DNA from: Nitrosopumilus sp. LS_AOA
GTDB lineage: Archaea > Thermoproteota > Nitrososphaeria > Nitrososphaerales > Nitrosopumilaceae
Reading direction: 5' to 3'
Length of the DNA: 64,000 bases
Assembly (NCBI GenBank): GCA_001543015.1
Contig: LFLC01000057.1
Span: forward strand, 27,457-91,456
The notes below the pieces were generated by a model. It was not told the origin of the DNA and did not search any database. It worked only from the letters and a program-made list of their open reading frames with translations. The position numbers and the translations under genes were made by a program. Below, one piece after another: positions 5,503 through 21,737 of this stretch; the first letter of the stretch is position 1; every line of letters begins with the position of its first letter.

Positions 5503-6292
5503 AATAGATATCTGTTCGTCTGTTTTTAAGTAATGGTAAAATTTTACGTGTTTGTTTTACTTTGTTTAAATCAATATCAACATAACCAATACCTTGTTTC
5601 TTTTTCATGTCAAGTAAAATTTTTCCATATGGATCAACTACTAAACTTCGACCACAGTAAATATTTCCAACTTGATCTGGTGCAATAACATAACATCCAT
5701 TTTCAATTGCACGCGTTTTGTTAATTGTAATCCAATGTTCTTCTTTCATGTTACCTTTAACCCATGCAGATGGTGCAACTAAAACTTCAGCACCAGATGC
5801 TGCAAGTGAACGTGCCATTTCAGGAAATCTCAAGTCATAACAAATCATCATTCCTGTTTTTCCCAATGTTGTGTTTACAGGCTTTGTAATTTTTGAGCCT
5901 GGAACCATTTTGTCTGATTCTTTAAATCCTAACGCATCATAGAGATGAATTTTTCTATAGGTAGAAATCACTTTACCTGAATTATCAATTACAAATGAAG
6001 AATCATATACACGATCTTTTTTTCTGCTCTTTTCATAAAATGATCCAATAATTTGAATTCTATTTTCTTTTGCTGCTTTTGCTATACTTGAAACAAAATT
6101 TCCATTAATTGTTTCAGCTAAACTTGCTAGTTGTTTTGAAGTTTGTTTAGAATTTGTGTAAAACATCATAAATTCTGGAAATGCACATAGTTTTGCATTC
6201 TTTGATGCTGCCTTTTGAATATATGAAATAATTTTTTCTAAATTTGTTTGTTTGTCAGTTGATGCTTTGAATTGAACTACTGCAGCTTTCAT
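5486..6292 (-). CDS. Carbon-nitrogen hydrolase (nitrilase superfamily)
   Basis: The Glu-Lys-Cys triad context is present: CAFPEF, YRKIHLY and MMICYDLRFPE. Confidence 0.85.
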   Translation of the reverse strand: MKAAVVQFKASTDKQTNLEKIISYIQKAASKNAKLCAFPEFMMFYTNSKQTSKQLASLAETINGNFVSSIAKAAKENRIQIIGSFYEKSRKKDRVYDSSFVIDNSGKVISTYRKIHLYDALGFKESDKMVPGSKITKPVNTTLGKTGMMICYDLRFPEMARSLAASGAEVLVAPSAWVKGNMKEEHWITINKTRAIENGCYVIAPDQVGNIYCGRSLVVDPYGKILLDMKKKQGIGYVDIDLNKVKQTRKILPLLKNRRTDIYSTLKA

Positions 6293-6355: not shown

Positions 6356-6532
6356 TTAAAGTTGGTTTCCTGCTAAAAACCAATTTTCTTTTGGATTGTC
6401 TTCAAAAACAACAATTACATGACTCTCCTTAGTCTTTAGAATTTCAACTGCTGATTTTGTTATTGCTTTTGCATATTCATCTTTTTGTTCCTGAGTTCTT
6501 CCAGGATACATTGATACTGTAATCAAAGGCAT
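6356..6532 (-). CDS. 4-oxalocrotonate tautomerase family protein (58 aa)
   Basis: Manual translation gives MPLITVSMYPGRTQEQKDEYAKAITKSAVEILKTKESHVIVVFEDNPKENWFLAGNQL. Pro at position 2 and the overall pattern are typical of the family. Confidence 0.7.
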   Translation of the reverse strand: MPLITVSMYPGRTQEQKDEYAKAITKSAVEILKTKESHVIVVFEDNPKENWFLAGNQL

Positions 6533-6565
6533 AAAAAATTCAAATAGATTCAGGAATTTATGTTT

Positions 6566-7342
6566 TCAATAATTGGGTCTGTAACCGTATCTTGAACCAT
6601 ACGTAAAATCAGAGCTGTGAGTTTTTTTGTAAATGTATCCTGTTGCCAATCCAATTACAAATCCACCAATATGAGCCAAATAAGCTACACCGCCGCCAGC
6701 AACACCGAATCCTCCAACAAAAAATGGCAATAAATTTTGGAAAACTAACCAAAATGGTAAGAACCATCGAGCCTGAATGTGCATCATTCTCCAAAAGAAA
6801 CCAAGCATCAAGAAAGTTTGAATTCTAGCTTTTGGAAAAATTACCAAATAAGCTCCCAATATTCCAGAAATTGCGCCAGATGCACCAACTGCAGGAATCA
6901 CACTACTTGGATCGCCATAAATGTGAACTAGTCCTGCAGTTACACCCCACATTAAATAAATTCCAAGATACTTTACTTTTCCAAACTTTTGTTCAATGTT
7001 ATCTCCAAATATCCACAAGAACAATAAATTACCACCAAGATGCATCAATCCACCATGCAGGAATGTTGAAGTAATCAAAGAGATGTATGGTGTAGAAGGA
7101 CATAGAATTCTAACGGGTCCTGCACCAAAATCTATTGCAGAAAAAGATGCACCTGTAACACAATTAGGAACAGCGCCCCAATTGTAAAATAAATTAAATG
7201 CATTTTGATTTGTAAAGTCAAAGAATTGTCCAGTATATGCAATTTCTATTAAAAATACAATTACATTAATTATGATTAAAGCATATGTTACTTTTGGTTT
7301 GAATCCTGGAGGATGTGGATTCTCATCTCTTAATGGAAACAT
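6566..7342 (-). CDS. Rhomboid family intramembrane serine protease
   Basis: The motifs FLHGGLMHLGGNLLFL, GASGAISG (GxSG catalytic Ser) and AHIGGF are present, with multiple TM segments. Confidence 0.85.
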   Translation of the reverse strand: MFPLRDENPHPPGFKPKVTYALIIINVIVFLIEIAYTGQFFDFTNQNAFNLFYNWGAVPNCVTGASFSAIDFGAGPVRILCPSTPYISLITSTFLHGGLMHLGGNLLFLWIFGDNIEQKFGKVKYLGIYLMWGVTAGLVHIYGDPSSVIPAVGASGAISGILGAYLVIFPKARIQTFLMLGFFWRMMHIQARWFLPFWLVFQNLLPFFVGGFGVAGGGVAYLAHIGGFVIGLATGYIYKKTHSSDFTYGSRYGYRPNY

Positions 7343-7382
7343 TAGTTGATTAGCTTCGATAAAAATCGTATAATAACATTAT

Positions 7383-8942
7383 TTAGTTTTGAATTTGTAA
7401 AATTCCTTGTTTTATTAAAAATTCTAATCCTTGAACAAATGTCTCATCATCAATGGAGCCATCAGCCCACCAACCTACATTATTTCTAATCCAATCAGGA
7501 ATTTCCTGTGATTCAGAACTTTCTTGTTGTGTTTGAGGAATTATAATAATATTATTATTTATCAAATATTCAATTCCTTTGATGAAAGTATTATCATCAA
7601 TTTGTTGCTCTGACCACCATAATGCATTATTTCTAATCCAATCAGGAATGGGAATGGAGTTATTTTGAGTGATTCTATTAATTACAATAGGAATTTTAGT
7701 TGTAGCAAGATGGTTATCATCTAAATTTTTGAAATTTAGATAAACTATACCTGAAATATCTTTAGGAATAAAAAACTCGGCAGTATTATGTTCTTCTTTT
7801 GAATCAGTACTAGTTCCACTTTGTTCAAAAATTACTATATCATTTTGAGTAATAGAAAAGTCATAAATTGCAGCAATTGGTCTATTCTTTAAGAAAATAT
7901 CTGTAACATCAAATAATATTTTTGCATTTGAATTAGATTTTAGATTCTCTGGTTCCCAAGATACAAGAATTCTAAACTGCCCATTTTCTGTAACAGAACT
8001 CAAATGAGAATAATCACGGTCAGGTTTTATTATAAAATCCATTTCATCAGTACTGGGATTACTTTGAAAAATATTCAATAATTCTTTTTGATAAATAATA
8101 AAATGTACTATCCGTTCATGAGAGATAAAATCATCAATGTTTACAACATCTTTAGATAATTCAATTCCATTTACATACATTGTAAAACCAGATACTAGTA
8201 AATCACCAAAGTCTTTTGAAATTTGTAATTCTTCATGGACAACAGATGTTTGATTAATGTTTGATTGACTCCATTCAAAAGGCATGGAAAAACTAATCTC
8301 TTTTGAATTTGAATCATATTCAAAATCTGAAATTTCATCATAATACGAAATGGTGTAAATATTTTGTTCCCCAAAATTTGGATCAATAATACTATGTTTT
8401 GATGTTTGAGCAATTGAAATTCCTGCATTAAAGACTAGAGGTTTATCTAATTTTTTGGAATATCCATCTGCAGTAAGCACACTAATGTCAAATTTGTACA
8501 AACCACCCTCACTTAGTTTTGGTCCAATTACATGAACTATCCTACTTTCAAGTCCTAATAATGAACCAAAAAAATCATCACTGTTATTATCATCATCAAT
8601 TATTATTGGAATTGTATCTTCTGATACAAAATTAAAAACTATGAAACCATTATCTGCTTGAAATTCTTGCTCAAAAAGAAATGTTTCTCCACGTTCAGAA
8701 GTAATTAAAAAAGTTACATCTCGTAAGGTAATTTTTGAATCAAAATCAATTAATGAAATAGAAATTTGTTGATCATCATTAGTTTCAGGATTGTTTTGTG
8801 AAGATGAAACTTCCAAAGTAACTAATCGACCATCTAATTCAACGGGTGGAAAAGTTTCACTACCAAAGCCATGACCATATACATGATCTATTCCAAAAAA
8901 TAGAAAAAATATCAAAGATGTAAATAAAAATAAATTTTTCAA
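7383..8942 (-). CDS. Secreted protein, paralog 1 of an uncharacterised family. Mature N-terminus HGFG, with two C-terminal W-rich ~35-aa repeats.
   Basis: The ORF track starts it at 9035. An in-frame TTG at 8940-8942 gives a clean signal peptide MKNLFLFTSLIFFLFFGIDHVYG|HGFG and removes the overlap with 8944-9150. Motifs shared with 9184-10899 and 19278-21014: GGLYKF, FEYDSNSKEISFSMPFEWS, VVHEE, MYVNGIE and RIVHF. Confidence 0.7.
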   Translation of the reverse strand: MKNLFLFTSLIFFLFFGIDHVYGHGFGSETFPPVELDGRLVTLEVSSSQNNPETNDDQQISISLIDFDSKITLRDVTFLITSERGETFLFEQEFQADNGFIVFNFVSEDTIPIIIDDDNNSDDFFGSLLGLESRIVHVIGPKLSEGGLYKFDISVLTADGYSKKLDKPLVFNAGISIAQTSKHSIIDPNFGEQNIYTISYYDEISDFEYDSNSKEISFSMPFEWSQSNINQTSVVHEELQISKDFGDLLVSGFTMYVNGIELSKDVVNIDDFISHERIVHFIIYQKELLNIFQSNPSTDEMDFIIKPDRDYSHLSSVTENGQFRILVSWEPENLKSNSNAKILFDVTDIFLKNRPIAAIYDFSITQNDIVIFEQSGTSTDSKEEHNTAEFFIPKDISGIVYLNFKNLDDNHLATTKIPIVINRITQNNSIPIPDWIRNNALWWSEQQIDDNTFIKGIEYLINNNIIIIPQTQQESSESQEIPDWIRNNVGWWADGSIDDETFVQGLEFLIKQGILQIQN

Positions 8943-8943
8943 A

Positions 8944-9150
8944 CTATGTCCACTTGTTTGGATCTTTTTTACGAATTTCTTTTCCGTCAATAGTGATTTG
9001 ATCTTTTTCTTCAAAAACAGTATGCCATTTTCCATTATTTGGAAAAATCTTGTTCATTTCTTTGACTTTGTTATTAGTTGGTGCTTTGTTCATCAAAGCT
9101 CCCCATTTCATGTTTGGAACTTTTGGCATAATGTCATTGATATCTTTCAT
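8944..9150 (-). CDS. Hypothetical small hydrophilic protein (68 aa)
   Basis: An open frame between the two paralogs on the same strand. I recognise no motifs, so it may be non-coding. Confidence 0.25.
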   Translation of the reverse strand: MKDINDIMPKVPNMKWGALMNKAPTNNKVKEMNKIFPNNGKWHTVFEEKDQITIDGKEIRKKDPNKWT

Positions 9151-9183
9151 TACACTATCACTTTACAGAATTTATTTAAAAAC

Positions 9184-10899
9184 CTATGATTGTACACTAA
9201 GAATTCCTTCTTTGATCAAAAATTGAATTCCTTGAACAAATGATGAATCATCAATGGAGCCATCAGCCCACCAGCCTGCATTATTTTTAATCCATGCAGG
9301 AATTTCATTGGAAGTAGAACTAGTGCCTTGTGTGGTTGGTGGAATCTTTAAAACATCTTCTTTGATCAAAAATTGAATTCCTTGAACAAATGATGAATCA
9401 TCAATGGAGCCATCAGCCCACCAGCCTGCATTATTTTTAATCCATGCAGGAATTACTGCTGGAGATTGAATTTCAGGTGTAGTTGTTACAGTTTTTCCTA
9501 GATTTGGTCCAATCTCAATAATACCTGAACCAATTCCGGCATACTTTGGATTATAGTCTAATCCTGTGCCATAAGCTAGAATATCTATTCTGTATTGACC
9601 TTGAGATGGAACATAAATTTTTTGAATATCAATTCCTTCAACTGCAACAATACCTAGATTCAGAGGATCATCTCCAGAAAATCTTTCTAGTTCTTGATTA
9701 CTTGCATTATCAATAAATGAAATTGAATATCTAATGTCTTTGATTAAATCTCTGTTTTCATTAAAAAATGTAATTTCAAAAGGTACATCATCACCTGCAC
9801 CATAATTTCCATCCCATGAAATATTTACTGTAGTTGGAACTTGTTCATTTTGAATGTCAACTAGATAAAATTCAGTTGAACTCTTTGATACTTCACTAAG
9901 TGGAACTAATTTCAAATTCATCTTTTTGTTATCATAATTATCTGAACCTAATGTTTCATTGATTTTTTGTAACTCATTTTTTGTAATTAAGAAATGAACA
10001 ATATTTGTGTCATCATATGAATAAGGATCATTTAGTAATGCTCTTTGATCAATTTCTACACCATTAACATATCCTTTGAATTGTTTTCCTTCTGCATAGG
10101 GTGCAAATGATTTTGGAACTCTAACTTCTTCATGTACTACTTGTACCAAATTAACATAATCTGGACTCCAATCAAATGGCATATCAAATGAGATTGAATT
10201 ATCTGATTCATCAAATTTAAAATTATCAATATCATCATAGTATGTTTTTACAACAACTGGAACTTCAGCATATGCGGTTTGAATAAAAAAGTCTTGTTCT
10301 TGTGCAACACTAACAAAAGTATCATAACTTAGCATATCAGCAACTAAAGTTCTTGGGCTAGTTGCAGCTTCAATGTTAACTTTGATGTTGTATAATCCAC
10401 CTTTTACAAATATTGGACCTGTGATAGAGGGTCTTGCACAAATATCCAAATTATCATCATTACATGCTACACCGTATACGTATAGAGCACCAGGAGCACT
10501 AACATGCTCTGAACCACCATAAGTTGTACATTGATGAAGATTAACTGCATCACATCCAGATTGTGGTTTAATTTTTACATCTAATCTTCCATCATCATCA
10601 TAAAAAAAATTTCTAGCTAAAAGTTCACCACTTTGCCATAATTCCACTCTAAATGTAACTTGATCAAGATTTTTGTCAGTTAATGTATCAAAGAAACGTA
10701 TCTGCATATTTGCAGAATCAATTTCTCCAACTGTGATATCAGATGGAGATAATTGTGTACGTACAGTTACTTCCATATCACCAAATGATATTGGTTCAGC
10801 TTGATCTCCACCTAATCCATGTCCAAATGCATTTGGAAGAACGGTAGAAATCGAGAAAATACCAACAACTATGGCTAATAATGCAAACTTGGCATACAT
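9184..10899 (-). CDS. Secreted protein, paralog 2. Mature N-terminus HGLG, a Cys-rich insert, and two identical C-terminal W-rich repeats.
   Basis: Signal peptide [26 protein letters not shown]|HGLGGD. Family motifs: [37 protein letters not shown] and NIVHF. The C-terminus is 2x [32 protein letters not shown]. Confidence 0.8.
9207..9304. repeat. Copy 1 of a perfect 98-bp direct repeat (copy 2 at 9357-9454)
   Basis: Base-by-base comparison shows the two copies are identical. The period is 150 bp. Each encodes the W-rich module of paralog 2. Confidence 0.95.
9357..9454. repeat. Copy 2 of the perfect 98-bp direct repeat
   Basis: Identical to 9207-9304. Confidence 0.95.
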
Positions 10900-11004: not shown

Positions 11005-11832
11005 ATGAAAATTTTGTTGGTATTGTTACTTGTTACATTTATGATAATTCCAGCTTTTGCTGAAACACAAACTTTACCAACAGAGCAAGGAACATTAGAT
11101 GTAAAACTAACATATGATACAATAGAACAAGACATTCTAAATAAAATTGGTATTGAATTTATTAATCCGCAAACACAAAAGATACAAATTCATATTGATT
11201 ACATAGTTACAGTTTCAAAAAATAATGAAACAGTTTTTGGGCCCACACAATTAATTCACACGTCTGAAGGAGCTGTAAAAATCCCAATTGAATTTAATCT
11301 TGGTGAAGGTACATATTCTATGAATATTGAAGTACAGGGAATTTTATTTAATCCAATTCCACCAGAAACTGTTTCATTTGAGATTTCAGTAGGTGAGGCT
11401 TTTGCACAGCCAGATTCTGAAAATGGAGTAGCAGAAGATACTTCAAATGGAGGCGGTTGTTTAATTGCAACTGCAGCATTTGGTTCAGAATTAGCACCTC
11501 AAGTACAACAATTAAGAGAACTTAGAGATAATACTATTTTATCAACAGAATCTGGAACTGCATTTATGGCAGGATTTAATCAATTCTATTATTCATTTTC
11601 ACCAATAGTATCTGATTTGGAACGTGAAAGTCCAATTTTCAAAGAAGCAGTAAAACTAACACTAACTCCAATGATTTCTACTTTATCAATAATGACATTA
11701 GCTGAAGATGGTAATGAATCACAAGTATTAGGACTAGGAATTTCTGTAATTATACTTAACTTGGGAATGTACATTACAATACCTGCAATAGCTGGCTTTG
11801 TAATTAGTAAACGCATTAAATCAAGAAATTAA
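11005..11832 (+). CDS. Secreted beta-sandwich protein with a Cys-initiated conserved C-terminal domain (CLIATAAFGS...) and a terminal TM segment
   Basis: Signal peptide MKILLVLLLVTFMIIPAFA|ETQ. The C-terminal 125 aa are homologous to the C-terminus of 19278-21014. Its first 75 aa (GGGCLIATAAFGSELAPQVQQLRELRDNTIL...KEAVKLTLTPM) are nearly identical to it. The protein ends with a hydrophobic helix and then KRIKSRN. Confidence 0.75.
   Translation: MKILLVLLLVTFMIIPAFAETQTLPTEQGTLDVKLTYDTIEQDILNKIGIEFINPQTQKIQIHIDYIVTVSKNNETVFGPTQLIHTSEGAVKIPIEFNLGEGTYSMNIEVQGILFNPIPPETVSFEISVGEAFAQPDSENGVAEDTSNGGGCLIATAAFGSELAPQVQQLRELRDNTILSTESGTAFMAGFNQFYYSFSPIVSDLERESPIFKEAVKLTLTPMISTLSIMTLAEDGNESQVLGLGISVIILNLGMYITIPAIAGFVISKRIKSRN
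11449..11673 (+). repeat. Left arm of a 225-bp inverted repeat (partner 19431-19655)
   Basis: My manual codon-by-codon alignment against the reverse complement of 19431-19655 found 15 mismatches in 225 nt. Exact runs of 51, 51 and 54 bp are present. Confidence 0.9.
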
Positions 11833-11934: not shown

Positions 11935-12318
11935 TTAAAGTGCAACTAGTTTTACAGTGTCCATGTTTTTGTTTGTCTGAAAATCTTTAGTCATTGTAGA
12001 TACTTTTTCTGCATCACCATCAATTACAAATAGTTCCATGCATTTTTCTTTGTCAATTTTACTATGAAGATGTGTGATGATTAGATCCTCAAAATTATGA
12101 GTAATTCCAGAAACTGCATGATCAAATTTATCATTGTGTACTACCAAAAGAATTGCATGAATATTTCCAGACAAATCTGATTTTTGTTTTTCTTCAGAAA
12201 CAAATGCTCTAATTCCTGCTCTGATTGCCTCAGACCTACCTGAGAATCCCATAGATAATTGTAATTTGTCTAATTCTGAAAGAATTTCATCATTTAATGA
12301 GATTGAAACTATGGGCAT
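11935..12318 (-). CDS. nikR: NikR-family (ribbon-helix-helix + ACT-like) metal-responsive repressor
   Basis: The RHH N-terminus is MPIVSISLNDEILSELDKLQLSMGFSGRSEAIRAGIRAF. The C-terminal His/Cys cluster reads VVHNDKFDH...ITHLHSKIDKEKC. Confidence 0.8.
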   Translation of the reverse strand: MPIVSISLNDEILSELDKLQLSMGFSGRSEAIRAGIRAFVSEEKQKSDLSGNIHAILLVVHNDKFDHAVSGITHNFEDLIITHLHSKIDKEKCMELFVIDGDAEKVSTMTKDFQTNKNMDTVKLVAL

Positions 12319-12324
12319 ATGCCT

Positions 12325-12368
12325 AATGTTATTAATTATCTTATAAGTTTAGCAGTCAATGTTATTAA
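12325..12368. promoter_or_regulatory. Two exact 11-bp direct repeats AATGTTATTAA (12325-12335 and 12358-12368) in the nikR/ABC divergent promoter. Candidate operator.
   Basis: The repeats are 33 bp apart start to start. The first lies 7 bp upstream of the nikR ATG. The second abuts the TTTATAG/TTTATTAATAA TATA-like region upstream of the 12409 start. Confidence 0.4.
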
Positions 12369-12408
12369 GATTTTATAGATTTATTAATAATTTGCATTAA
12401 CTTGGTTT

Positions 12409-13305
12409 GTGAATATTCAAGTAAAAGCTGCAATAATTGCTATAGTAATTATAATTCCATTAAGCTCAATTGCAGTTTATGGGACTGATTCAAATCAACA
12501 ATTTACAAAAAACGATAATTCAAAATTACAAGTAATTTCTTCATTTTATCCCCTCCATGAATTCTCTCAACATGTAGGTGAGGACAAAGTTGATGAAATA
12601 TTACTTGTTCCAGTTGGAGTTGAACCACATGATTGGGAACCAACAATTAAAGATGTACAAAGAATGCAACAATCTGATCTAATTATAATAAATGGAATTG
12701 GATTTGAAAATTGGGTTGACAAATTAGATGAAACAAATTATCAAGGTGTAATAGTTGATACAAGTAATAATATTTCAGATGAGGAATTAATTAAAAATTC
12801 TGGAGATCCACATATATGGCTAAATCCAGTTTATGCAAAAATCCAAGTACAAAATATTGCAAATGCTTTTTCTATTTCAGATCCTGAAAATCAACAATTC
12901 TATCAATCAAATGCTGTAAAATATATCAAAGAGTTAGATTCACTTGATACAAAAATTCAAAATGAATTATCTGATTGTACTCGTGATTTTGTTTCTTTTC
13001 ATGATGCGTTTTCATACTTTGCAAAAGAATATGATCTAAACCAACATACTATCATTTCATCAAATGGTATGCATGGAGATACTACTGCAAAAAAATTAGA
13101 AAATGTAATTACAACTGCAAAAAAATTTAACATTACAGTAATTTTTAGTGAAGAAAATACTGATACTAGAACATCAAAAATTATTGCACATGAAATTGGT
13201 GGAAAAGTTTTATTGTTATCTACTTTGGAAGTTTCTTCAAATGGAAATTATATTTCCAAAATGACTGAAAATCTTGAAAATCTAAAGGAGGCCCTATGTC
13301 AATAG
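12409..13305 (+). CDS. Metal ABC importer, cluster-9 (TroA/ZnuA-like) substrate-binding protein
   Basis: GTG start and an N-terminal anchor helix. Ligand-region motifs are FYPLHEF, EPHDWEP, DPHIWLNP and SFHDAFSYF. There is no His-rich loop. Confidence 0.8.
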   Translation: MNIQVKAAIIAIVIIIPLSSIAVYGTDSNQQFTKNDNSKLQVISSFYPLHEFSQHVGEDKVDEILLVPVGVEPHDWEPTIKDVQRMQQSDLIIINGIGFENWVDKLDETNYQGVIVDTSNNISDEELIKNSGDPHIWLNPVYAKIQVQNIANAFSISDPENQQFYQSNAVKYIKELDSLDTKIQNELSDCTRDFVSFHDAFSYFAKEYDLNQHTIISSNGMHGDTTAKKLENVITTAKKFNITVIFSEENTDTRTSKIIAHEIGGKVLLLSTLEVSSNGNYISKMTENLENLKEALCQ

Positions 13306-14015
13306 TTGAAATTAATAATCTCACAGTTCATTATCCAGATGTAAAGGCCCTTGATGATGTGAGCTTTGTAGTTAATGAAGGCGACTTTTTAGGCATAATT
13401 GGACCAAATGGTGCTGGAAAATCCACTCTTTTTGATTGCATGTTGAGGCTAAATACCAAATACAAAGGGATAATCAAATTTTTTGGAAAAGATATTAGAG
13501 ATTCAAAAAATTATCTTAAAGGAATTGGATATGTTCCACAAAAACCAATTTTTGAAAAAAACTTCCCAGTTACAGTAAACGATGTTGTACAAATGGGGTT
13601 AAGAAATGAATCTGATAAAGAAAAAATTGATGAAATATTACAACAGTTATGGATACATGAATTACGTAACAGAAGAATTGGTGAGTTATCTGGAGGACAA
13701 CAACAACGAGTCTTTATTGCAAAAGCATTAGTGCATGATCCAAAAATTTTGATTCTAGATGAACCAGTAGCTGGAATTGATCAACAAAGTATTGAATTAT
13801 TTTATAGTATTTTACGTGAACTAAATTCTAAACAAAAAATTACAATTATTTGGTCTTCTCATGATCTTGATGCCGTAAATAAACTTGCAAATCATGTAGC
13901 ATGTTTGAATAGAACATTATTTTTTCATGGTGAATCTGAAAAATTCTTTTCTGATGACAAGCTTGTAAAGCAATATTCTGAAGCATCAATGCAAGAACAC
14001 ATGCATCATCATTAA
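13296..14015 (+). CDS. Metal ABC importer ATPase (ZnuC-like)
   Basis: Walker A GPNGAGKST, signature LSGGQQQR and Walker B ILILDEP. The C-terminus is a His tail, MHHH. Confidence 0.85.
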   Translation: MSIVEINNLTVHYPDVKALDDVSFVVNEGDFLGIIGPNGAGKSTLFDCMLRLNTKYKGIIKFFGKDIRDSKNYLKGIGYVPQKPIFEKNFPVTVNDVVQMGLRNESDKEKIDEILQQLWIHELRNRRIGELSGGQQQRVFIAKALVHDPKILILDEPVAGIDQQSIELFYSILRELNSKQKITIIWSSHDLDAVNKLANHVACLNRTLFFHGESEKFFSDDKLVKQYSEASMQEHMHHH

Positions 14016-14017
14016 TC

Positions 14018-14836
14018 ATGTCATTTGAAATTCTAACATACAGCTTTATGCATAGAGCATTAATTTCTGGAATTGCAATTGCAATTCTTTGTTCAGTTGT
14101 TGGCTTATTTTTAGTATTGAGACGTTATTCATTATTTGGTGATGCAATAGCTCATTCATCATTTGGTGGAATTGCATTAGGTTTGCTAGCAGGTGTTTAT
14201 CCATTGTTGACTGCTTATGGTGTTTCAATAATTAGTGCATTAATAATTACAAAAATCAAGGACAAATACAATATTTCAGGCGATGCATCAATTGCTGTAC
14301 TTTTATCCTCAGGAATAGCAGTTGGGCTCGTAATTATTGGTTTTTCAGGTGGATTTACGATTGATATCTTTAGTTTTCTATTTGGAAGTATTCTTTTAGT
14401 TAGTGTAGATGATACTATTCTAATTTTATCATTAACTGGAATCATTCTAATTGTAATTTTATTATTGTATAGACAAATTCTTTATTCCACATTTAATGAA
14501 GAACAAGCTAAAGTTAGTGGTATCCCTGTTGAAAAAATTAATTATTTGATTGTATTTATGGCAGGAATTACTGTGGTGACAGCAGTTCAACTTGTAGGTG
14601 TTTTGTTAATTTCAGCCCTATTTGTAATTCCAAATGTTACTGCAATAATGTATGGAAAAGGTTTCAAACAGACAGCAATAATCTCAATGAGTTTCTCTGT
14701 TTTTTCTGTTGTTGCAGGAATTTTAATTTCATATATTTTTGACATTACTCCTGCAGGAACCATTGTTTTATTATCAATTGGATTACTTGGAGGAACAATG
14801 GGGATAAAGTCAGCAGGACTATTATCTAAGAATTAA
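14018..14836 (+). CDS. Metal ABC importer permease (ZnuB-like)
   Basis: 272 aa and polytopic. It follows the ATPase gene directly, and the ABC-3 family pattern is present (GDAIAHSSFGG). Confidence 0.85.
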   Translation: MSFEILTYSFMHRALISGIAIAILCSVVGLFLVLRRYSLFGDAIAHSSFGGIALGLLAGVYPLLTAYGVSIISALIITKIKDKYNISGDASIAVLLSSGIAVGLVIIGFSGGFTIDIFSFLFGSILLVSVDDTILILSLTGIILIVILLLYRQILYSTFNEEQAKVSGIPVEKINYLIVFMAGITVVTAVQLVGVLLISALFVIPNVTAIMYGKGFKQTAIISMSFSVFSVVAGILISYIFDITPAGTIVLLSIGLLGGTMGIKSAGLLSKN

Positions 14837-17606
14837 TTAAAGAGTTTAGTCTTCTTTTATCTTGAACACTTTTTACATAAAACAATGATGTTGCAATAAT
14901 TCCTAATGCAACTAGTGGTGATGCAATCTCTGTATATTTTAATTCAAAATTACTAGTTGTTTGTATTTGTGATGGAATAACTGGAATTTCTGTTATTTTT
15001 ATTGTTCCAAGCTTGTTTGATTGCTGTTCTACAAACCATACATTATCATTTCCATCTGTTGTCATGAATTGTACAAATGATGTTTCAGTTGGAATTGGAA
15101 TCTCGATCAAATTATTGTTATCTGGATCATATACTCCGATATTATCTACTGTGTGTTCTGCAAACCAAATATTCCCATATTTGTCAAGTGTCATTCCAAA
15201 TGGTAATGCATCTTTATTTGGTACTGAAATTTTCTCAAATGTCTCTAAAACGGGGTTAAATTTGGTAATTGCTGAGCCTGTATGTTCTGCAATCCATAAA
15301 TTTCCATCATTATCAAACATTAATGCTTCAGGGGACTGAAGTGGAGAGTCACTTGAGAATTGAGTAATTTGATTATTTTCAGGATTAATGAATCCAATTT
15401 TACCTGTACCTGATGTAGAATACCATATTTTTCCATCATCATTTACTGTTAAAGCAAATGGAAATGACTCTCTTTCTAATTGTATTACTTCAAATGTATC
15501 TAATTCTGGTAAATATTTTACAATACTATCTTTGTTTATGATACTTATCCAAATATTCCCATCAAAATCTGCTTGAATAAAGATTGGAGCGTTATCGGAT
15601 ATTGTAGGATCTAGATTTGGAATTGTTTTTGTTGTAATTTGTTTATTTTCTGGATCAAAGAAACCAATTTGATTTCTTGGAGTATCTACAAACCATATTT
15701 TTCCACTATTATCTTGTGTTAGAAACATTGTAGCTAGACCATCAAATGAATATGAAGTAAATTCTTGTGAATCAAGTGAAAATTGCCACAATCGTGGAGA
15801 TGATGCATCACTTAACCAAATAGAATTTTTTCCATCATACAATGGGAAAAGAGGTTTAGCATCTTTTGGTAATTCATATTCAATTATTTGAGTTTGAATG
15901 TTTACTAGTTGTGGTTTTATCAGTAAATTCATTATTTTTGATTCGTTAGCATTCTCAGTTCTTTGTGCTTCAACTTCTAATAACCAAACTCCAGAAAATC
16001 CAAATGTTATTTCACCTTGAAATTCAGTTGGTCTGTTCTCACTTTGTTTGATTAAATTCATTGGGATTTCAATTGGAGAGATATTTTTTAATGGATTTGA
16101 AATTTTTACTTTAATTTGATTTGAATCTGAAAGTGGTTTATTTTCAAAGTCACTCACTTTAACTAGAATTGTATTTACACCACTTGAAAATGGTGAAATT
16201 TCAATGCCAAATTTTGCTTTTTCAGTAAATTCGATAGTCTTAAAACCATAGATTATTTCTTGTGCTTCAACTTTTTGAATTTCTCCTGCTGGAAGTGTTC
16301 CATTAGTTAGTAATGCCACTACTCCTAATAGAGCAATTCCCAATACTACATCAACTTTGAGTGATCTCTTTAGTTTTCTATGAACAGAAATTTTTCCTGA
16401 CTGAATATTTTTTTCTGCATTTTTTTGTATTCGAAACTGGAAAAATCCACCAAACCCAATTATTATTGCAGCAATTGCAATTTTTAAAATAATTAATTGG
16501 CCATAAACGGATTCTGTAATTAATCCTACATCACTTTCTAAGAACCACATTAGAGTTGGTCCTGTAATTAATACAACACCAATTGCAATAATAAAAGCAA
16601 TTGAAAATCTTGGAATAAGTAATAAACTCATTTTCTCTCGTTTTGATTCTTTTAACTGTGCAAATGTTGGTAATAATGTGAAAACAAAATAGAATATTCC
16701 ACCTATCCATACTGCTGAAACTAAATTATGTATGTAATCTAAAACAAGTGCAGGTGTTTCTCCACTAGCTGCACCATGTCCTATTAAACTTGAAGTTCCA
16801 ATTAATACAAGCATTGCTACTAACATTGATATTTGATTTTTCTTTGATAGAACTTTTTTCCTATTCAATCCAAACCAAATTCCCAGTAAAATTACCGTAA
16901 TTGTCATTCTAATGATCCAAATGTTTCCAAAATCGGTTTGAATTGCATCAAATACTGATGCTTCTAATCTAATAGATTGAATAGCAATCATCAAAATATT
17001 TGAAATAAAAATTAAAATTAGTCCTATACCTGTAAGTGTCATAAATTTTCTATGATGGAATGTTTCTATCTTGTCTAATTCTTCTCGAATTAATTGCTTG
17101 TTTTGTGTACCCCAAATTATTAGAGATGAAATTATTACTCCTAAAACGATTGTTTGACCAACAAGACCTGGAAACCTAGCTCCTGCTTCGGGTAAAAATA
17201 CTATTTCTGATGGTCTTTCAAATTCTAATGATGCAGAATCTACTATAGCATTACCTATTGCAAACAAGAATGCATCAGGAACTAAATGCCCATCAACTTT
17301 TGAGAGAACTTTAGTTGTTACAGTATAAACTCCGTCTTCTAATGGAGGAGTTGTAACAATAAGAGATAATTCATCTTCAAAGTAATCGGTATCTTTGTTA
17401 TCTATTTGATTTCCATTATTATCAAGTACTTTTACTTCACTAAAGTTTATGTCAATTGGTTCTGAAAAAAATATGATTACTTCTGAAGTACCCGTTGGAG
17501 CATTAGATACTAAGCTTGGAATAGTTTCTTCTGTAAATGGATGTGCATATACAAGTGGAATTGATATTGATGAAAATACAAGTAATAGTATTAGCAATCC
17601 TCTCAT
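14826..17606 (-). CDS. CopC-CopD fusion extended by a YtkA-like Ig domain, a Vgb/NHL-like beta-propeller and a C-terminal TM anchor
   Basis: 926 aa. The signal peptide is ...IPLVYA|HPFTEE. The CopC domain includes DGVYTVTTKVLSKVDGHLV. About 8 TM segments form the CopD-like region. Repeated propeller blades include IWFVDTPRNQIGFFDPENKQIT, IWYSTSGTGKIGFINPENNQIT, LWIAEHTGSAITKFNP, IWFAEHTVDNIGVYDPDNNNL and VWFVEQQSNKLGTI. Confidence 0.85.
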   Translation of the reverse strand: MRGLLILLLVFSSISIPLVYAHPFTEETIPSLVSNAPTGTSEVIIFFSEPIDINFSEVKVLDNNGNQIDNKDTDYFEDELSLIVTTPPLEDGVYTVTTKVLSKVDGHLVPDAFLFAIGNAIVDSASLEFERPSEIVFLPEAGARFPGLVGQTIVLGVIISSLIIWGTQNKQLIREELDKIETFHHRKFMTLTGIGLILIFISNILMIAIQSIRLEASVFDAIQTDFGNIWIIRMTITVILLGIWFGLNRKKVLSKKNQISMLVAMLVLIGTSSLIGHGAASGETPALVLDYIHNLVSAVWIGGIFYFVFTLLPTFAQLKESKREKMSLLLIPRFSIAFIIAIGVVLITGPTLMWFLESDVGLITESVYGQLIILKIAIAAIIIGFGGFFQFRIQKNAEKNIQSGKISVHRKLKRSLKVDVVLGIALLGVVALLTNGTLPAGEIQKVEAQEIIYGFKTIEFTEKAKFGIEISPFSSGVNTILVKVSDFENKPLSDSNQIKVKISNPLKNISPIEIPMNLIKQSENRPTEFQGEITFGFSGVWLLEVEAQRTENANESKIMNLLIKPQLVNIQTQIIEYELPKDAKPLFPLYDGKNSIWLSDASSPRLWQFSLDSQEFTSYSFDGLATMFLTQDNSGKIWFVDTPRNQIGFFDPENKQITTKTIPNLDPTISDNAPIFIQADFDGNIWISIINKDSIVKYLPELDTFEVIQLERESFPFALTVNDDGKIWYSTSGTGKIGFINPENNQITQFSSDSPLQSPEALMFDNDGNLWIAEHTGSAITKFNPVLETFEKISVPNKDALPFGMTLDKYGNIWFAEHTVDNIGVYDPDNNNLIEIPIPTETSFVQFMTTDGNDNVWFVEQQSNKLGTIKITEIPVIPSQIQTTSNFELKYTEIASPLVALGIIATSLFYVKSVQDKRRLNSLINS

Positions 17607-17700
17607 TTACTCTTACGATCATCTTTGATAATTTAAACAGTTTATCAATAATTCGAGATTTATCCCATTTCACGTAAAGATAATAATATGTAATTTCCAA

Positions 17701-18339
17701 TTGGATATAGTGAAGATTATACTCTTTGTCTTTATTGGATTATTATTTTCAATTGGAATGATTATACCTTCATTTGCTCATACAACAGTTCATGTTGAAG
17801 AATATAGTATTGAAGTTGGTTGGGGAATTGAACCACCTGTTGTAGGAATTAGAAATGAAATTGTCTTTAAAATTACTGAATCCGGAGAAAATGAAGGAAC
17901 TTATTCTGGAGTAACTAGTGTCTTCAAAGATGTTGATGCAACTGTGATGTTTGGAGGTATATCAAAAAAAATAGATATTAATTCAGATCCAAGACCTGGA
18001 TATTATTTTTCACCGATTATTCCAACTAAAATAGGAACTTACATGGTAGAACTAAAAGGTGAACTAAGAGGGATTCCAATTGATATTAAAATTCCAGTTG
18101 AAGATATAGAATCTACTGCAGTACTGGATTTTCCACCTACAAATAGTGAAGGAACTGCTGATGTAACTGCTCTAAAGAATGCAATATCCTCTTTACAACA
18201 AGATGTTTCGAAACTAAAATCTGGTAAAACTTCTGTTCCATCTGATGGTGGAGCAGCTTATGACTTTGCAATATTTGGATTATCAATTGCTGCAGCAGCT
18301 ATCATTCTGTCGATAATTGCTTTAATAAAAAGAAAATAA
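17701..18339 (+). CDS. Secreted, C-terminally TM-anchored beta-sandwich protein with mature N-terminal His. Possible YcnI-like Cu-binding protein.
   Basis: TTG start (a GTG at 17710 is also possible). The signal peptide is ...IIPSFA|HTTVHVEEY. The C-terminus AAYDFAIFGLSIAAAAIILSIIALIKRK is a TM anchor. The gene lies divergent from the CopCD gene. Confidence 0.55.
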   Translation: MDIVKIILFVFIGLLFSIGMIIPSFAHTTVHVEEYSIEVGWGIEPPVVGIRNEIVFKITESGENEGTYSGVTSVFKDVDATVMFGGISKKIDINSDPRPGYYFSPIIPTKIGTYMVELKGELRGIPIDIKIPVEDIESTAVLDFPPTNSEGTADVTALKNAISSLQQDVSKLKSGKTSVPSDGGAAYDFAIFGLSIAAAAIILSIIALIKRK

Positions 18340-18352
18340 AAAAGAGGGATTC

Positions 18353-19219
18353 CTAAAATCTTGGAACAACTCTAGATTTTGCAGTTACTGCTACGATGCT
18401 TATGATTGCGACAGCTAGTATCATCATTGCAATTGTACCAAATTCTGGGACAATTTGTGATGTAGCTACTGAACCTAATGGTCCAGTCCAATCTGCTTCA
18501 GCATCTGGTGGGCCAATTCCTAGAGAAACTATTTCGATATCAATTGGACTATCATCTGATCCAATAGCATCAACCATGTGACTTGTAGTCATTTCCATGG
18601 AGTGTGCAGTTTCTTTGTAAATTTCTTCACCGTTTTGTGTTGCAGTTATTTCATAGTTGACATGTAATTCACTGAATTCAAGATCCACTTGAGTTCCGTC
18701 ATCTACTACTGAGTCGGTAATTGTTACCATCAATACTGCTTCTGCTGCTTCTGCTGCTTCTGCTGCTTCTGCTGCTTCTGCTGCTTCTGCTGCTTCTGCT
18801 GCTTCTGCTGCTTCATCTGCATGTGCTTCTTGTACTATGATTGTGCCAAACATGTATGATGCATGTAATGAACAATAGTACGGAACTTCACCTACAGTAG
18901 TTGCAATCCATTCACCAGACTGTCCTGGTTCTAGAACACCAGTATCAAATTCTTCAGTTGGATTAGGTGTAAATCCATCCACAGTTCCTGCTGTAAATGA
19001 ATGAAATCCTGTAGGATTTGAGAATATTACTTTTCCACCAACATCAACTGTTGCAGTACTTGGAGTATAACATTCTGATCCACAATCCGGACTCATTGCA
19101 TCTTCTGATGTAGCGATTGTAACTTCTGCATGATCTGCAAAAGCAGCTGGAGTTGATGAAATCATCACAGCTGCGATAGCAAATAGTACAAAGAAAGAGC
19201 AAATTGCTTTAGTCTTCAT
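18353..19219 (-). CDS. Blue (type 1) copper protein: cupredoxin domain, (AEA)n linker, second beta domain and PEFG-CTERM sorting signal
   Basis: The signal peptide ends ...TPAAFA. T1Cu ligands are present in GFHSF ... YYCSLHASYMFG (His...Cys-x2-His-x4-Met). The tail IVPEFGTIAMMILAVAIISIVAVTAKSR matches the thaumarchaeal PEFG-CTERM pattern. Confidence 0.85.
   Translation of the reverse strand: MKTKAICSFFVLFAIAAVMISSTPAAFADHAEVTIATSEDAMSPDCGSECYTPSTATVDVGGKVIFSNPTGFHSFTAGTVDGFTPNPTEEFDTGVLEPGQSGEWIATTVGEVPYYCSLHASYMFGTIIVQEAHADEAAEAAEAAEAAEAAEAAEAAEAAEAVLMVTITDSVVDDGTQVDLEFSELHVNYEITATQNGEEIYKETAHSMEMTTSHMVDAIGSDDSPIDIEIVSLGIGPPDAEADWTGPLGSVATSQIVPEFGTIAMMILAVAIISIVAVTAKSRVVPRF
18737..18812. 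repeat. 9-bp tandem repeat (TGCTTCTGC, about 8 units) encoding the (AEA)n linker
   Basis: Read directly at 18737-18812. It translates on the minus strand to AEAAEAAEAAEAAEAAEAAEAAEA. Confidence 0.9.
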
Positions 19220-19277: not shown

Positions 19278-21014
19278 TTAGTTTTTTCTAATCTGGTATA
19301 CCTTTAAAATTCCTAATAATGGAATTCCGACATACATTCCTGCATTTAATATAATCAAACTAATTCCATATCCTAACATGTCTTGTTCTGAATCAATATC
19401 AACATAATTCAATAGAGATAGTGATGATAACATTGGAGTTAGTGTTAGTTTTACTGCTTCTTTGAAAATTGGACTTTCACGTTCTAAATCAGCAATTACT
19501 GGTGAAAATGAATAATAGAATTGATTAAATCCTGCCATAAATGCAGTTCCTGATTCTGTTTGTAGAATTGTATTATCTCTAAGTTCTCGTAATTGTTGTA
19601 CTTGAGGTGCTAATTCTGAACCAAATGCTGCAGTTGCAATAAGACAACCTCCACCTTCAGCAGTCTCTTCTACGACTTCTTCTTCAGTAGTCTCTTCCAT
19701 GACTTCCTCTACCATTTTTTTCTCTGTAGATTCCGCTACAACAACAAAGCCAAACTCTGTTTCTTGTCCTGTATTTCTAATGTTTTCAAATTTAATTATA
19801 GTTGGACCTGTCTGATCCTCACTAAAAGTGAATTTTTCAAAATCACCTCCAACTTGTGCTAGTCCTGTTGTACGAAAAATTTCATTTCCATTTTGAATTA
19901 TTACAAATGTAAAATCAGAACTTCTTAGAGGCTCATTTGTTCTTCCATCTCGAATAGTAAAAATAAAATTTGTAGGAACTCCGGGTTCAACATTTAATGG
20001 ATCCCATGAAAGATTAATTTTGAAGTCCTCACTTTTTGTATATGCTTCTAAAGGAAATGCAATTTTTTTACTTGTAGATAATGTAAAAGTAATTTTATCA
20101 GGAATTGGTTCTTCAGATTTTTTCATTTCATTTTTTAGAAATTTGAGATGATCTTGTAATAAAACCATGTGAACGATTCTTTCATCTTCTACTGTATAAT
20201 CATCAACAGATACTGAAGATTTGAATAATTGAATTCCATTAACATAACCAGAATAACTAGGACTCAAAAACTCTGAAAAGTCTTTTGGAAAATGTGTTTC
20301 AACATGAACTACAGATACATGAGACATTTGTTTTTCACTCCAATCAAATGGCATATCAAATGTAATCTGTTTATTCTCAGAATCATACTCAAAATTAGAA
20401 AGTGTATCAAAATATGATTTTAAACTAAATTCTATATCATTATTTTCAGTGTCTTTTTGAATAAATGAAACAGTCTCAACTAAAGTCAAATCAACTTTAT
20501 AGACTTTAGAATTTTCAATAATGTTTGTTGGTTCATCGATAGTTCTTACTTCAATCTCAAAATTATACAAACCACCTGAATTAAACAGAGGTCCTGTGAT
20601 TTCTATTGGATTTGATTCAGTAGGATGCCAGGCTCCAAGAAGAGAGTCTTGTTCACCATGAATTGTAATTTTTTCTTCTTGCGTAGGTTTAACATTAATT
20701 GGTAAAATTCCATCTTCTGCAAAGAAATAGTTTCTAAAAATCATCTCGCCATTATGAAATAAACCAATTAGAAATGTTACATTTTTTGCAGTTTCGTCTG
20801 TTTCATCATCTATTGCAGTAATTGTGATTTGTTCTGATTCATTTTCAAAATACATTGGCATCTCAACTGTTACAGTCAAGCTTTTTCCTTGTACATCAAT
20901 TGATGAAATTGTTTCAATTCCCAATCCATGACCATATACGCTACTTGCAGGAAATAGCAAACAAACAACCATTACAAAAACTACAAATTTTGCTACAGCC
21001 AACATTATTTTCAT
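19278..21014 (-). CDS. Secreted protein, paralog 3. Mature N-terminus HGLG, an acidic linker, then a CLIATAAFGS-type C-terminal domain with a TM segment.
   Basis: The signal peptide is ...LLFPASSVYG|HGLGIE. Family motifs: [37 protein letters not shown] and RIVHM. The linker is EEVMEETTEEEVVEETAEGGG. The C-terminus is homologous to 11005-11832. Confidence 0.8.
   Translation of the reverse strand: MKIMLAVAKFVVFVMVVCLLFPASSVYGHGLGIETISSIDVQGKSLTVTVEMPMYFENESEQITITAIDDETDETAKNVTFLIGLFHNGEMIFRNYFFAEDGILPINVKPTQEEKITIHGEQDSLLGAWHPTESNPIEITGPLFNSGGLYNFEIEVRTIDEPTNIIENSKVYKVDLTLVETVSFIQKDTENNDIEFSLKSYFDTLSNFEYDSENKQITFDMPFDWSEKQMSHVSVVHVETHFPKDFSEFLSPSYSGYVNGIQLFKSSVSVDDYTVEDERIVHMVLLQDHLKFLKNEMKKSEEPIPDKITFTLSTSKKIAFPLEAYTKSEDFKINLSWDPLNVEPGVPTNFIFTIRDGRTNEPLRSSDFTFVIIQNGNEIFRTTGLAQVGGDFEKFTFSEDQTGPTIIKFENIRNTGQETEFGFVVVAESTEKKMVEEVMEETTEEEVVEETAEGGGCLIATAAFGSELAPQVQQLRELRDNTILQTESGTAFMAGFNQFYYSFSPVIADLERESPIFKEAVKLTLTPMLSSLSLLNYVDIDSEQDMLGYGISLIILNAGMYVGIPLLGILKVYQIRKN
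19431..19655 (-). repeat. Right arm of the 225-bp inverted repeat (partner 11449-11673)
   Basis: See the left arm. Identity is about 93%, including synonymous positions. Confidence 0.9.
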
Positions 21015-21026
21015 TTCTAATTAGGG

Positions 21027-21737
21027 TTATTTTATTGTGAGTAATTCTTTAACTTTTTGAATCAAATTCTCAATATTGGTAGCCTCTAAAATCGGTTGAA
21101 GTTCATTTGGGACTTTAGCTCCAATTGCTGCAAGTGAGTAAATGTAATCAATTGTAGGTGTATCAGTGTTAAGATAGTACTGCTCTAAAACATGATCTAA
21201 ACCATGAGAATCAACAACTTGTGGTAGGGCTTGATGTATGATTTTCTTTTTCCACAATTGTACCAAATTTTCCCACTGTTCTAATGAGATACTCTCATCA
21301 ATTTCTGGAATCATTTCAACTTCAGCTTGGATGTACATTTTTTTTCCAGTTCCAATTTTTTCATGTATTTCAGATACTTGTTGATGTCCTTCTACTGAAA
21401 GTGGATCATAATTTTCTGGTTGAGAGATTATTGGTGAAATAACTTTTTTAATTTTAAATGAATTTCTGCCTACAGTTTCTATGTGTAATTGTAATCCATC
21501 AAGTTCAACATCTTTACATTCAGTAATTTTAGCTATAGTTCCTATCAATCTAGGTGAATTCCATCCATTAACAGAATTATTTTCATCAATCAAGCATACT
21601 CCAAACTGACCATCACCAATCATACAATCATCAACTAATTGCTTGTAGCGAGGCTCAAATATTCGAAGTGGGAGAGACTGTCTAGGAAATAAAACCAAAT
21701 CTAAAGGAAAGATTGGAATAATTTTTGTTTCAGTCAA
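21027..21737 (-). CDS. LON N-terminal (substrate-binding) domain protein
   Basis: The motif IPIFPLDLVLFPRQSLPLRIFEPRYKQLVDDC is typical of the Lon N domain. No ATPase or protease part is present. Confidence 0.8.
   Translation of the reverse strand: MTETKIIPIFPLDLVLFPRQSLPLRIFEPRYKQLVDDCMIGDGQFGVCLIDENNSVNGWNSPRLIGTIAKITECKDVELDGLQLHIETVGRNSFKIKKVISPIISQPENYDPLSVEGHQQVSEIHEKIGTGKKMYIQAEVEMIPEIDESISLEQWENLVQLWKKKIIHQALPQVVDSHGLDHVLEQYYLNTDTPTIDYIYSLAAIGAKVPNELQPILEATNIENLIQKVKELLTIK

Follow-up and report, generated by a model that had tools for sequence, protein, structure and literature searches.

A family of exported proteins in ammonia-oxidizing archaea with interchangeable anchors, a predicted N-terminal histidine, and a possible role in copper handling beside CopC-CopD

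An N-terminal His-Gly left by signal peptide cleavage is a hallmark of Cu(II) histidine-brace proteins, among them PmoB, AmoB, the AA10 lytic polysaccharide monooxygenases (LPMOs), CopC, and YcnI. Ammonia-oxidizing archaea (AOA) are among the most abundant microbes of ocean and soil and carry out nitrification with copper enzymes at very low free copper. We know of no described route by which copper is captured in AOA and loaded onto ammonia monooxygenase (AMO), NirK, and plastocyanins. The gene for YcnI, a membrane-anchored extracellular protein of Bacillus subtilis, neighbors that of the CopC-CopD importer YcnJ. Cu(II) is bound in YcnI by a "monohistidine brace" composed of the N-terminal His and a Glu, and it passes between YcnI and the CopC domain of YcnJ (PMC8424229, PMC12362106). 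Described here is a protein family with three members in a 64,000-nucleotide stretch of Nitrosopumilus sp. LS_AOA (contig LFLC01000057.1, positions 27,457 to 91,456), which is called the window throughout and has a G+C content of about 31%. The three paralogous open reading frames (ORFs) are labeled P1, P2, and P3, and a CopC-CopD fusion (CopCD) is encoded in the same cluster.

The favored reading, given a probability of about 0.4, is that these are envelope-anchored Cu(II)-binding proteins working with CopCD, analogous rather than homologous to YcnI and CopC. The shared core is divided into three domains, D1 (mature residues 1 to 138), D2 (139 to 275), and D3 (276 to 400), and residues are numbered from the mature N-terminus of P3. 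The likeness to YcnI, a DUF1775 protein, lies in the predicted N-terminal His, a conserved acidic residue at position 6 or 41 as a candidate ligand, the CopCD neighborhood, the envelope anchoring, and the beta-sandwich structure. The family differs from YcnI in having three domains where YcnI has one, in a His/Glu/His set in D2 that has no YcnI counterpart, in its confinement to AOA, and in that its metal binding is a deduction. Pfam gave no DUF1775 match at E ≤0.1 for the three paralogs or at E ≤0.001 for 85 diverse relatives, and the profile search of the PDB was likewise empty.

CopC and other bis-histidine-brace proteins (PmoF/PCuAC, the LPMO-like X325, and LPMOs) share with the family an N-terminal His produced by signal peptide cleavage, which is predicted in the family, and a beta-sandwich scaffold. 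Such proteins handle Cu(II) outside the cytoplasm, a role that is proposed for the family by analogy. The H-x-E on one strand of D2 recalls the D-x-H of CopC, and H209 and H254, which are invariant in the family, are candidates for a second brace His. No CopC match (PF04234 / NF033814) was returned by Pfam or NCBIfam, and hhalign against neighboring CopC domains gave 2.6% for D1, 0.3% for D2, and 0.3% for D3. A third point of comparison is the macroglobulin (MG) arrays of C3, alpha-2-macroglobulin (A2M), and CD109, which are also strings of beta-sandwich domains. Unlike these, the family has no thioester, bait region, CUB domains, or A2M Pfam domains, and its D2 alone matches nothing in the PDB. 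The family is not part of any catalogued family. An extracytoplasmic N-terminal-His copper protein partnered with CopCD is an already known kind of system; the scaffold is new and includes, as modeled, a domain without a PDB analogue.

The three genes were delimited using the ORF list, BLASTP, and domain hidden Markov models (HMMs). All are on the minus strand, with P1 and P2 in tandem and P3 further along the window, exactly as the original prediction had placed them. P1 (7383-9035) encodes 550 amino acids (aa) and is composed of a leader with signal peptide (8874-9035), D1 (8448-8873), D2 (8064-8447), D3 (7680-8051), and two W-rich repeats (7392-7649). P2 (9184-10899) encodes 571 aa and is composed of a signal peptide (10822-10899), D1 (10345-10821), D2 (9943-10335), D3 (9517-9894), and two W-rich repeats (9193-9453). 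An insert with four Cys residues, also noticed earlier, is located inside D1 of P2 at aa 113-154 (10438-10563, minus strand). P3 (19278-21014) encodes 578 aa and contains a signal peptide (20931-21014), D1 (20517-20930), D2 (20112-20513), and D3 (19737-20102), followed by an acidic linker, a CFI-box-CTERM domain (19431-19646), and a hydrophobic tail (19281-19430). Read from its annotated ATG, the P1 leader has a Lys-rich n-region of about 35 aa ahead of the hydrophobic core, and because this is unusually long the P1 start codon is uncertain. The true start may sit downstream at a non-ATG codon.

The proteins are paralogs, with similarity far above chance over an alignable span of about 400 residues. 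BLASTP gave an E value of 9e-53 and 28% identity for P1 against P2, 5e-40 and 27% for P2 against P3, and 7e-51 and 30% for P1 against P3. A profile of the three cores, run against all six-frame ORFs, found no additional family member in the window. Eight motifs had been proposed to run in a fixed order through the three sequences: HG[LF]G, VTF[LR], GGLY[KN][FI], F[EK][YF]D[SE], I[ST]F[SD]MPF[ED]WS, VVH[EV]E, [GM]YVNG[IV][EQ], and [RN]IVH[FM]. A regular-expression check with coordinates recovered every one of them in P1, P2, and P3 in that order.

The first motif lies at the predicted mature N-terminus, as had been assigned. Predicted cleavage (VYG|HG, AFG|HG) falls directly before the HG, and His is the predicted first mature residue because the HG comes after a hydrophobic leader whose -1 and -3 residues are small. 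This holds for all three paralogs, so that at the level of predicted cleavage each starts as histidine-brace proteins do. The HG[LF]G motif, a candidate metal ligand, is located on the minus strand at 20919-20930 in P3 (HGLG), 10810-10821 in P2, and 8862-8873 in P1. Of the approximately 131 cluster representatives with a readable N-terminus, 91 have His and 22 have Asp as the predicted residue +1. The cleavage context is the canonical A/V/S-x-G/A, and in the 91 with His the -1 residue is Gly in 81 and the -3 residue is one of Ala, Val, and Ser. Gly fills position 2 in 115 of 116 representatives and an acidic residue (Glu or Asp) fills position 6 in 117 of 120, for an N-terminal consensus of [H/D]-G-x-[GSTA]-x-[E/D]-x-L-P-P. 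Duplicated HG..HG N-termini are present in ten clusters.

Conservation was measured over 150 cluster representatives. In D1 the near-invariant positions are H1, G2, D41, F69, G74, and G119-G120-L121-Y122, with Asp or Glu at position 41 in 120 of 134 representatives. In D3 they are W309 and Y340. In D2 the set is made up of S149, Y173-Y174-D175, M193-P194-F195-x-W197, H209, E211, N231, D243, and H254. The counts for the last five are 141/148, 144/148, 135/144, 136/143, and 138/143, respectively. The signature that runs from VVHVE (H209 and E211) to RIVHM (H254), and includes N231 and D243, is found on the minus strand at 20166-20312 in P3, with equivalents at 9991-10140 in P2 and 8100-8243 in P1. 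In the models, one predicted strand carries H209 and E211, with a single residue between them, and another strand carries H254. The core has no conserved Cys or Met, for which reason Cu(II), or some other ion of hard or borderline character, fits better than Cu(I). In a mean-field direct coupling analysis (552 sequences, Neff 193), the apparent contacts of residue 1 are dominated by gap artifacts and by a subfamily signal (pair 1-141).

The representatives that begin with Asp form a "DG" subfamily (22 of about 131 clusters; AFG|DGLTQENLPPA), examples of which are P0217, P0222, P0224, P0226, and P0227 and the loci L024, L031, and L072. This subfamily retains H209, E211, D243, and H254. A His at position 123, beside the invariant Y122, is present in 77% of the DG subfamily versus 9% of the His1 group, and from the alignment it looks like a relocated ligand. 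The DG subfamily may have either a different metal preference or such a relocation.

The original prediction could not assign the core to any family, and the searches agree. Pfam and NCBIfam matched nothing in the core of P1, P2, or P3, nor in that of the 85 relatives, and isolated core domains gave no match in these databases even at E ≤10. Only the C-terminal sorting domains were recognized. The PDB sequence search returned nothing significant with single sequences or with a 99-sequence profile, and Pfam found no informative extra (fused) domains in the ten longest relatives. None of these searches linked the core confidently to a characterized family with a function unrelated to metals. Within the searchable library of papers, no publication on this protein family turned up.

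An AlphaFold2 model of the P3 core (aa 29-430), built on a 140-sequence alignment, has a pLDDT (predicted local distance difference test) of 90.8 and a pTM (predicted template modeling score) of 0.83. The modeled core divides into three domains and consists nearly entirely of beta structure. D1 and D3 are homologous beta-sandwiches (94% probability by profile-profile comparison), while the HMM of D2 matches family members only. D2 modeled alone has a pLDDT of 89.8 and a pTM of 0.82. A Foldseek search of the PDB with this model gave no match below E 0.1, the best being no better than E 0.16 with a template modeling score (TM-score) of 0.28. D2 is therefore described here as a family-specific domain, with a predicted fold that appears to be absent from the PDB. 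The only significant Foldseek matches in the PDB for the whole core were MG/Ig-like arrays (C3, A2M, CD109), with E values from 2e-7 to 1e-4, TM-scores of 0.20 to 0.23, and a root-mean-square deviation above 20 Å. Homology to MG arrays was rejected, since TM-scores of only about 0.2 reflect generic similarity between tandem beta-sandwiches.

The family is large. A word-indexed search with the P3 core as the query found 2,126 relatives. With the three-paralog profile, HMMER was run exhaustively over 1.84 billion cluster representatives and gave 673 clusters (50% identity) at E ≤1e-3 and 196 at E ≤1e-30. The earlier description of a three-member family is thus accurate for the window and far too small beyond it. 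A pattern scan that took one genome for each GTDB species confirmed 241 loci, the best 80 of which belong to Nitrosopumilus, Nitrosarchaeum, Nitrosotenuis, Cenarchaeum, Nitrososphaera, and unclassified Thaumarchaeota. The motifs are no peculiarity of this genome, being conserved across loci in several AOA genera. The family is present in several copies per genome. The closest genome for P3 is that of Ca. Nitrosopumilus salarius (79% identity), and orthologs of P2 are 49-89% identical to P2, some of them named "peptidase" or "hypothetical protein" by NCBI (for example, NKOR_08915, WP_014964012.1, of N. koreensis/maritimus). AJW69937.1 of N. adriaticus is another ortholog in the family.

All named relatives found are AOA, from Nitrosopumilus to Nitrososphaera, save for two apparently misbinned contigs. 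These two loci, L032 (JAJDED010000042.1) and L066 (JAJDDC010000010.1), were deposited in metagenome-assembled genomes of Planctomycetota / Phycisphaerales. Their G+C content is 34-37% and their synteny is of the Nitrosopumilus type (family genes, CopCD, a rhomboid gene, and a CFI-box protein). Because both properties are those of AOA, the contigs are almost certainly misbinned. A further locus, L079 (CBDAUQ010000002.1), is labeled Cenarchaeum sp. and has a G+C content of 70.8%, far above the other AOA loci. It keeps the order ZnuCB, CopCD, 212-aa protein, CFI-box protein, family gene, and rhomboid.

The C-terminal ends can be sorted into several groups. Of 94 complete representatives of clusters at 50% identity, 38-40 end in a PEFG-CTERM-like sequence with a transmembrane (TM) segment, 41 end in one or two W-rich repeats, three end in a CFI-box, and ten end in something else. 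A conserved core with exchanged attachment modules, suggested earlier from the three paralogs, is therefore a property of the whole family. P1 and P2 each carry two tandem W-rich repeats of about 37 aa, as had been reported. In P3 the acidic linker is followed by the CLIATAAFGS domain noted before, which is the catalogued CFI-box-CTERM; aa 457-528 match NF041770 with 73.8 bits against a cut-off of 40. NF041770 did not match P1 or P2, and TIGR04296 (PEFG-CTERM) did not match P1, P2, or P3. Elsewhere in Nitrosopumilus, P3 orthologs are mostly 452-460 aa long with a PEFG-CTERM end, which makes the CFI-box of P3 a minority form. The Nitrososphaera homolog in L063 also has a CFI-box end. The W-rich repeat, found as well in L058 (10364-11665) and about 30 other loci, is a portable module, because it also ends unrelated 430-aa secreted proteins in the same clusters. 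It is a previously undescribed third module beside PEFG-CTERM and CFI-box. The PEFG-CTERM and CFI-box models describe the interchangeable tail only and are uninformative on the core.

Synteny was counted in 79 related loci, with a gene scored when it lay within 8 kb of a family gene. CopCD was found in 44 of the 79 loci, a CFI-box protein in 47, a plastocyanin-like protein in 42, a 212-aa secreted protein in 38, ZnuB in 23, and NikR in 12. Linkage to CopCD spans five genera. It persists in Nitrososphaera (L041, L063, and L071), Nitrosotenuis (L011 and L019), Cenarchaeum (L079), and other lineages (L031). In Nitrosopumilaceae the family genes bracket a cluster of NikR, ZnuABC, CopCD, the 212-aa protein, and plastocyanin, and NikR-ZnuABC is also beside family genes in Nitrosotenuis. 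The Nitrososphaera loci and several Nitrosopumilaceae loci lack NikR-ZnuABC. In its absence, P3 orthologs abut CopCD (L010 and L018).

From these features a mechanism can be proposed. P1, P2, and P3 would be exported and then held at the cell envelope, where a metal ion, most likely Cu(II), would be bound outside the cytoplasmic membrane. Candidate ligands are His1, through its free amino terminus and imidazole, with the carboxylates at position 6 and D41, and/or the D2 cluster of H209-x-E211, D243, and H254. In partnership with the adjacent CopC-CopD importer, copper would be captured, buffered, or handed over, its destination being either import or the loading of envelope cuproenzymes. The different anchors would set the same core at different envelope depths. 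The metal reading is strengthened by the CopCD synteny together with the conserved N-terminal His. D175, H209, E211, N231, D243, and H254 of D2 are also residue types typical of metal sites. Two further observations were counted for copper. The family is found only in AOA, organisms with exceptional copper demand, and domains of the D1/D3 type recur in other proteins of the cluster, namely the CFI-box neighbor and ORFs read as containing a cupredoxin.

Several points weigh against this reading. Metal binding is deduced from residues and gene order. Tandem beta-sandwich surface proteins are often purely structural. The adjacency of a NikR-like regulator and a ZnuABC-type importer fits Ni, Zn, or Mn equally well. 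His1 is not universal, being replaced by Asp in the 22 representatives mentioned above and by Gln or Asn in a few. Most of the loci are from Nitrosopumilaceae, so the synteny counts are not independent, and only the cross-genus linkage of CopCD carries real weight among them. Lastly, no published expression datum could be mapped to any family member.

The published data on copper and H2O2 in AOA are used as context only, because none can be assigned to a specific family member. According to Reyes et al., N. maritimus probably feeds CopD via a chaperone other than CopC (PMC7785015). In N. viennensis, the CopC/D neighborhood, which includes exported proteins of uncharacterized function, is induced by copper limitation (PMC7785015). 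The log2 fold-changes of NVIE_014340, NVIE_014350, and NVIE_014360 under copper limitation are mixed, at +1.44, +0.69, and -0.46 (PMC7785015). The gene order of L063 is compatible with a family gene among these three without singling one out, and the fold-changes were not used as evidence. Under H2O2 stress, a transporter with a CopC domain and several PEFG-CTERM proteins increase (Bayer et al., PMC6593220). That proteome lists PEFG-CTERM proteins as orthogroups, none of which is tied to a family member (PMC6593220).

Four other explanations can be set against Cu(II) binding with CopCD. A fairly unlikely one is that the proteins are extracytoplasmic enzymes, with D2, perhaps together with the N-terminal His, forming a mononuclear metal active site. 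Such an enzyme would act as a hydrolase or peptidase on envelope components, or as an oxidoreductase with small-molecule substrates in the pseudo-periplasm. The family-only D2, with its near-invariant H-x-E, H, D, and N, could pass for a catalytic site as readily as for a carrier site, and several paralogs per genome with differing anchors would suit work at several envelope sites. Many orthologs are in addition labeled "peptidase" by NCBI and UniRef. This label was rejected. The only Pfam signal behind it is a sub-threshold match of the W-rich repeat, rather than the core, to Peptidase_MA_2 (17.5 bits, E 0.004, cut-off 32.4), and judging from the sequences the name is probably an artifact of this weak similarity. 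HExxH is missing from P1, P2, and P3; the conserved V-H-x-E has no second His, and the HVETH of P3 is not conserved. No other recognized catalytic motif is present, and Foldseek recovered no enzyme fold from the PDB for either the whole core or D2. The genes conserved nearby are for metal handling, and none is related to a substrate. A more radical version, which is quite improbable, keeps copper and holds that His1 or Asp1 could combine with the His/Glu/Asp/His of D2 in a new mononuclear copper center, making the family an AOA-specific envelope copper enzyme or acquisition device. Its activity might be the stripping or reduction of organically complexed copper for CopCD, or hydroxylamine/NO chemistry of the archaeal pathway.

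It is unlikely that the family is a structural or adhesive envelope protein, for instance a strut or spacer associated with the S-layer and built from beta-sandwich modules, in which the conserved polar residues stabilize the fold (Ca2+ sites, inter-domain contacts) and no metal is trafficked. D1 and D3 are repeated modules common to other surface proteins of the cluster, the C-terminal modules serve in sorting or attachment, and the whole-core model matches only MG/Ig-like arrays (C3, A2M, CD109; E about 1e-7). That match is generic at a TM-score of about 0.2. A purely structural role also leaves unexplained the His or Asp at the first mature residue in 113 of about 131 representatives, the invariant His/Glu/His of D2, and the linkage to CopCD from Nitrosopumilus to Nitrososphaera. 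Unspecified PEFG-CTERM proteins do rise together with S-layer proteins under H2O2 (Bayer et al., PMC6593220), which fits a structural role. It is similarly improbable that the metal is Ni, Zn, Mn, or Fe and that the family is the outer capture or storage protein of the NikR-regulated ZnuABC-type importer. NikR and ZnuABC are located between family genes in the window and beside P3 orthologs in many Nitrosopumilaceae, and in Nitrosotenuis (L011) the family gene has a NikR-like ORF immediately beside it in the same orientation. Nor do the His/Glu/Asp ligand sets or the Asp1 subfamily point to copper specifically. The absence of NikR-ZnuABC from Nitrososphaera and several Nitrosopumilaceae loci, in which the family gene is beside CopCD, argues against this assignment, as does the His-Gly N-terminus, which points to Cu(II).

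If the Cu(II)-binding reading is adopted, the family is a concrete, clonable candidate for the chaperone that feeds CopD. It is AOA-only, multi-copy, equipped with interchangeable anchors, linked to CopCD across deeply diverged genera, and conserved in its N-terminal His. A structure of D2 would be informative whatever its function, since its predicted fold is apparently absent from the PDB. The misleading database name "peptidase" is also corrected.

The genes between P2 and P3 were annotated as follows. A 275-aa secreted protein (11005-11832, plus strand) has an N-terminal beta-sandwich and a CFI-box-CTERM (NF041770, 72.3 bits). Its N-domain is homologous to D3 (95.7%) and to D1 (89.9%) by hhalign, and its predicted mature N-terminus is Glu (AFA|ETQTL). 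It is followed by a NikR-like regulator (11935-12318, minus strand) and a ZnuA/ZnuC/ZnuB-type metal ABC importer (12409-14836, plus strand). The CopC-CopD fusion (14826-17606, minus strand) is 926 aa long with its CopC domain at aa 22-117 and a C-terminal beta-propeller. Pfam gave E values of 4.5e-10 for CopC, 4.8e-15 for CopD, and 1e-35 for the Vgb_lyase/SGL propeller. The propeller is approximately 340 aa long, of a Vgb_lyase / SGL / NHL-like type, with a TM helix after it.

The gene divergent from CopCD (17701-18339, plus strand) encodes a secreted protein of 212 aa that has a TM helix at its C-terminus. It adjoins CopCD in 38 of the 79 loci, Nitrososphaera included, and its predicted mature N-terminus is HTTVHVEEY. 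No Pfam match (DUF1775 included) or PDB match was found for it, and profile-profile comparison showed it to be unrelated to D1, D2, or D3. It may be a second uncharacterized N-terminal-His family. By analogy, it resembles YcnI in position and topology. The next gene (18353-19219, minus strand) encodes a plastocyanin-like protein with an (AEAAE)n linker, a second domain, and a PEFG-CTERM (E 7.8e-13); its Copper-bind match in Pfam is weak (0.014). The ortholog of this protein in L015 matches the D1 model at 7.7e-07, while the window protein is below threshold. Several non-family ORFs in related loci (L017, L028, L035, and others) have a plastocyanin-like IHPWMEG start and match the core profile only outside D2. 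These are read, from sequence, as a fusion of a cupredoxin with a D3-like domain.

The Nitrososphaera locus L063 has the order CopCD, exported, CopCD, membrane, helix-turn-helix, three exported ORFs, and family gene. Small exported, TM-anchored proteins are encoded at 5740-6255 and 6400-6906, between CopCD and the family gene. One small exported protein of this locus has a D3-like domain (E 4e-6), and another, with His at its predicted N-terminus (ADA|HFFGATQ), resembles nothing tested.

Two candidate regulatory sequences were considered. The terrestrial copper-limitation promoter motif TTCSGSMTTTGWACYANT was dropped, as it gave one match with two mismatches in L063 and two matches in L041, and no family gene has one immediately upstream. 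In the window it has only matches with two or three mismatches, marginally more than chance at seven against 3.1 expected, and 4 of 100 shuffles reach seven. The sequence TAATGTTATTA occurs at 12324-12334 and 12357-12367, in the divergent intergenic region of NikR and ZnuA, and at 7371-7381, in the gap that separates P1 from the rhomboid gene. A role as an operator is conceivable, but as a shared operator it was set aside, with nine matches against 5.7 expected and no enrichment window-wide.

The usual gene order in related loci is pyrB, LON-domain gene, P3, (NikR-ZnuABC), CopCD, 212-aa protein, plastocyanin, CFI-box protein, P2, (P1), and rhomboid. Relative to N. salarius and most Nitrosopumilaceae loci, the block from NikR to plastocyanin (11935-19219) is inverted in the window. 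P3 begins 12 bp past the stop of a gene for a cytoplasmic protein with a LON-substrate-binding domain (21015-21737). Because the order pyrB, LON-domain gene, and P3 is kept in many Nitrosopumilaceae, co-transcription of P3 with the LON-domain gene is possible.

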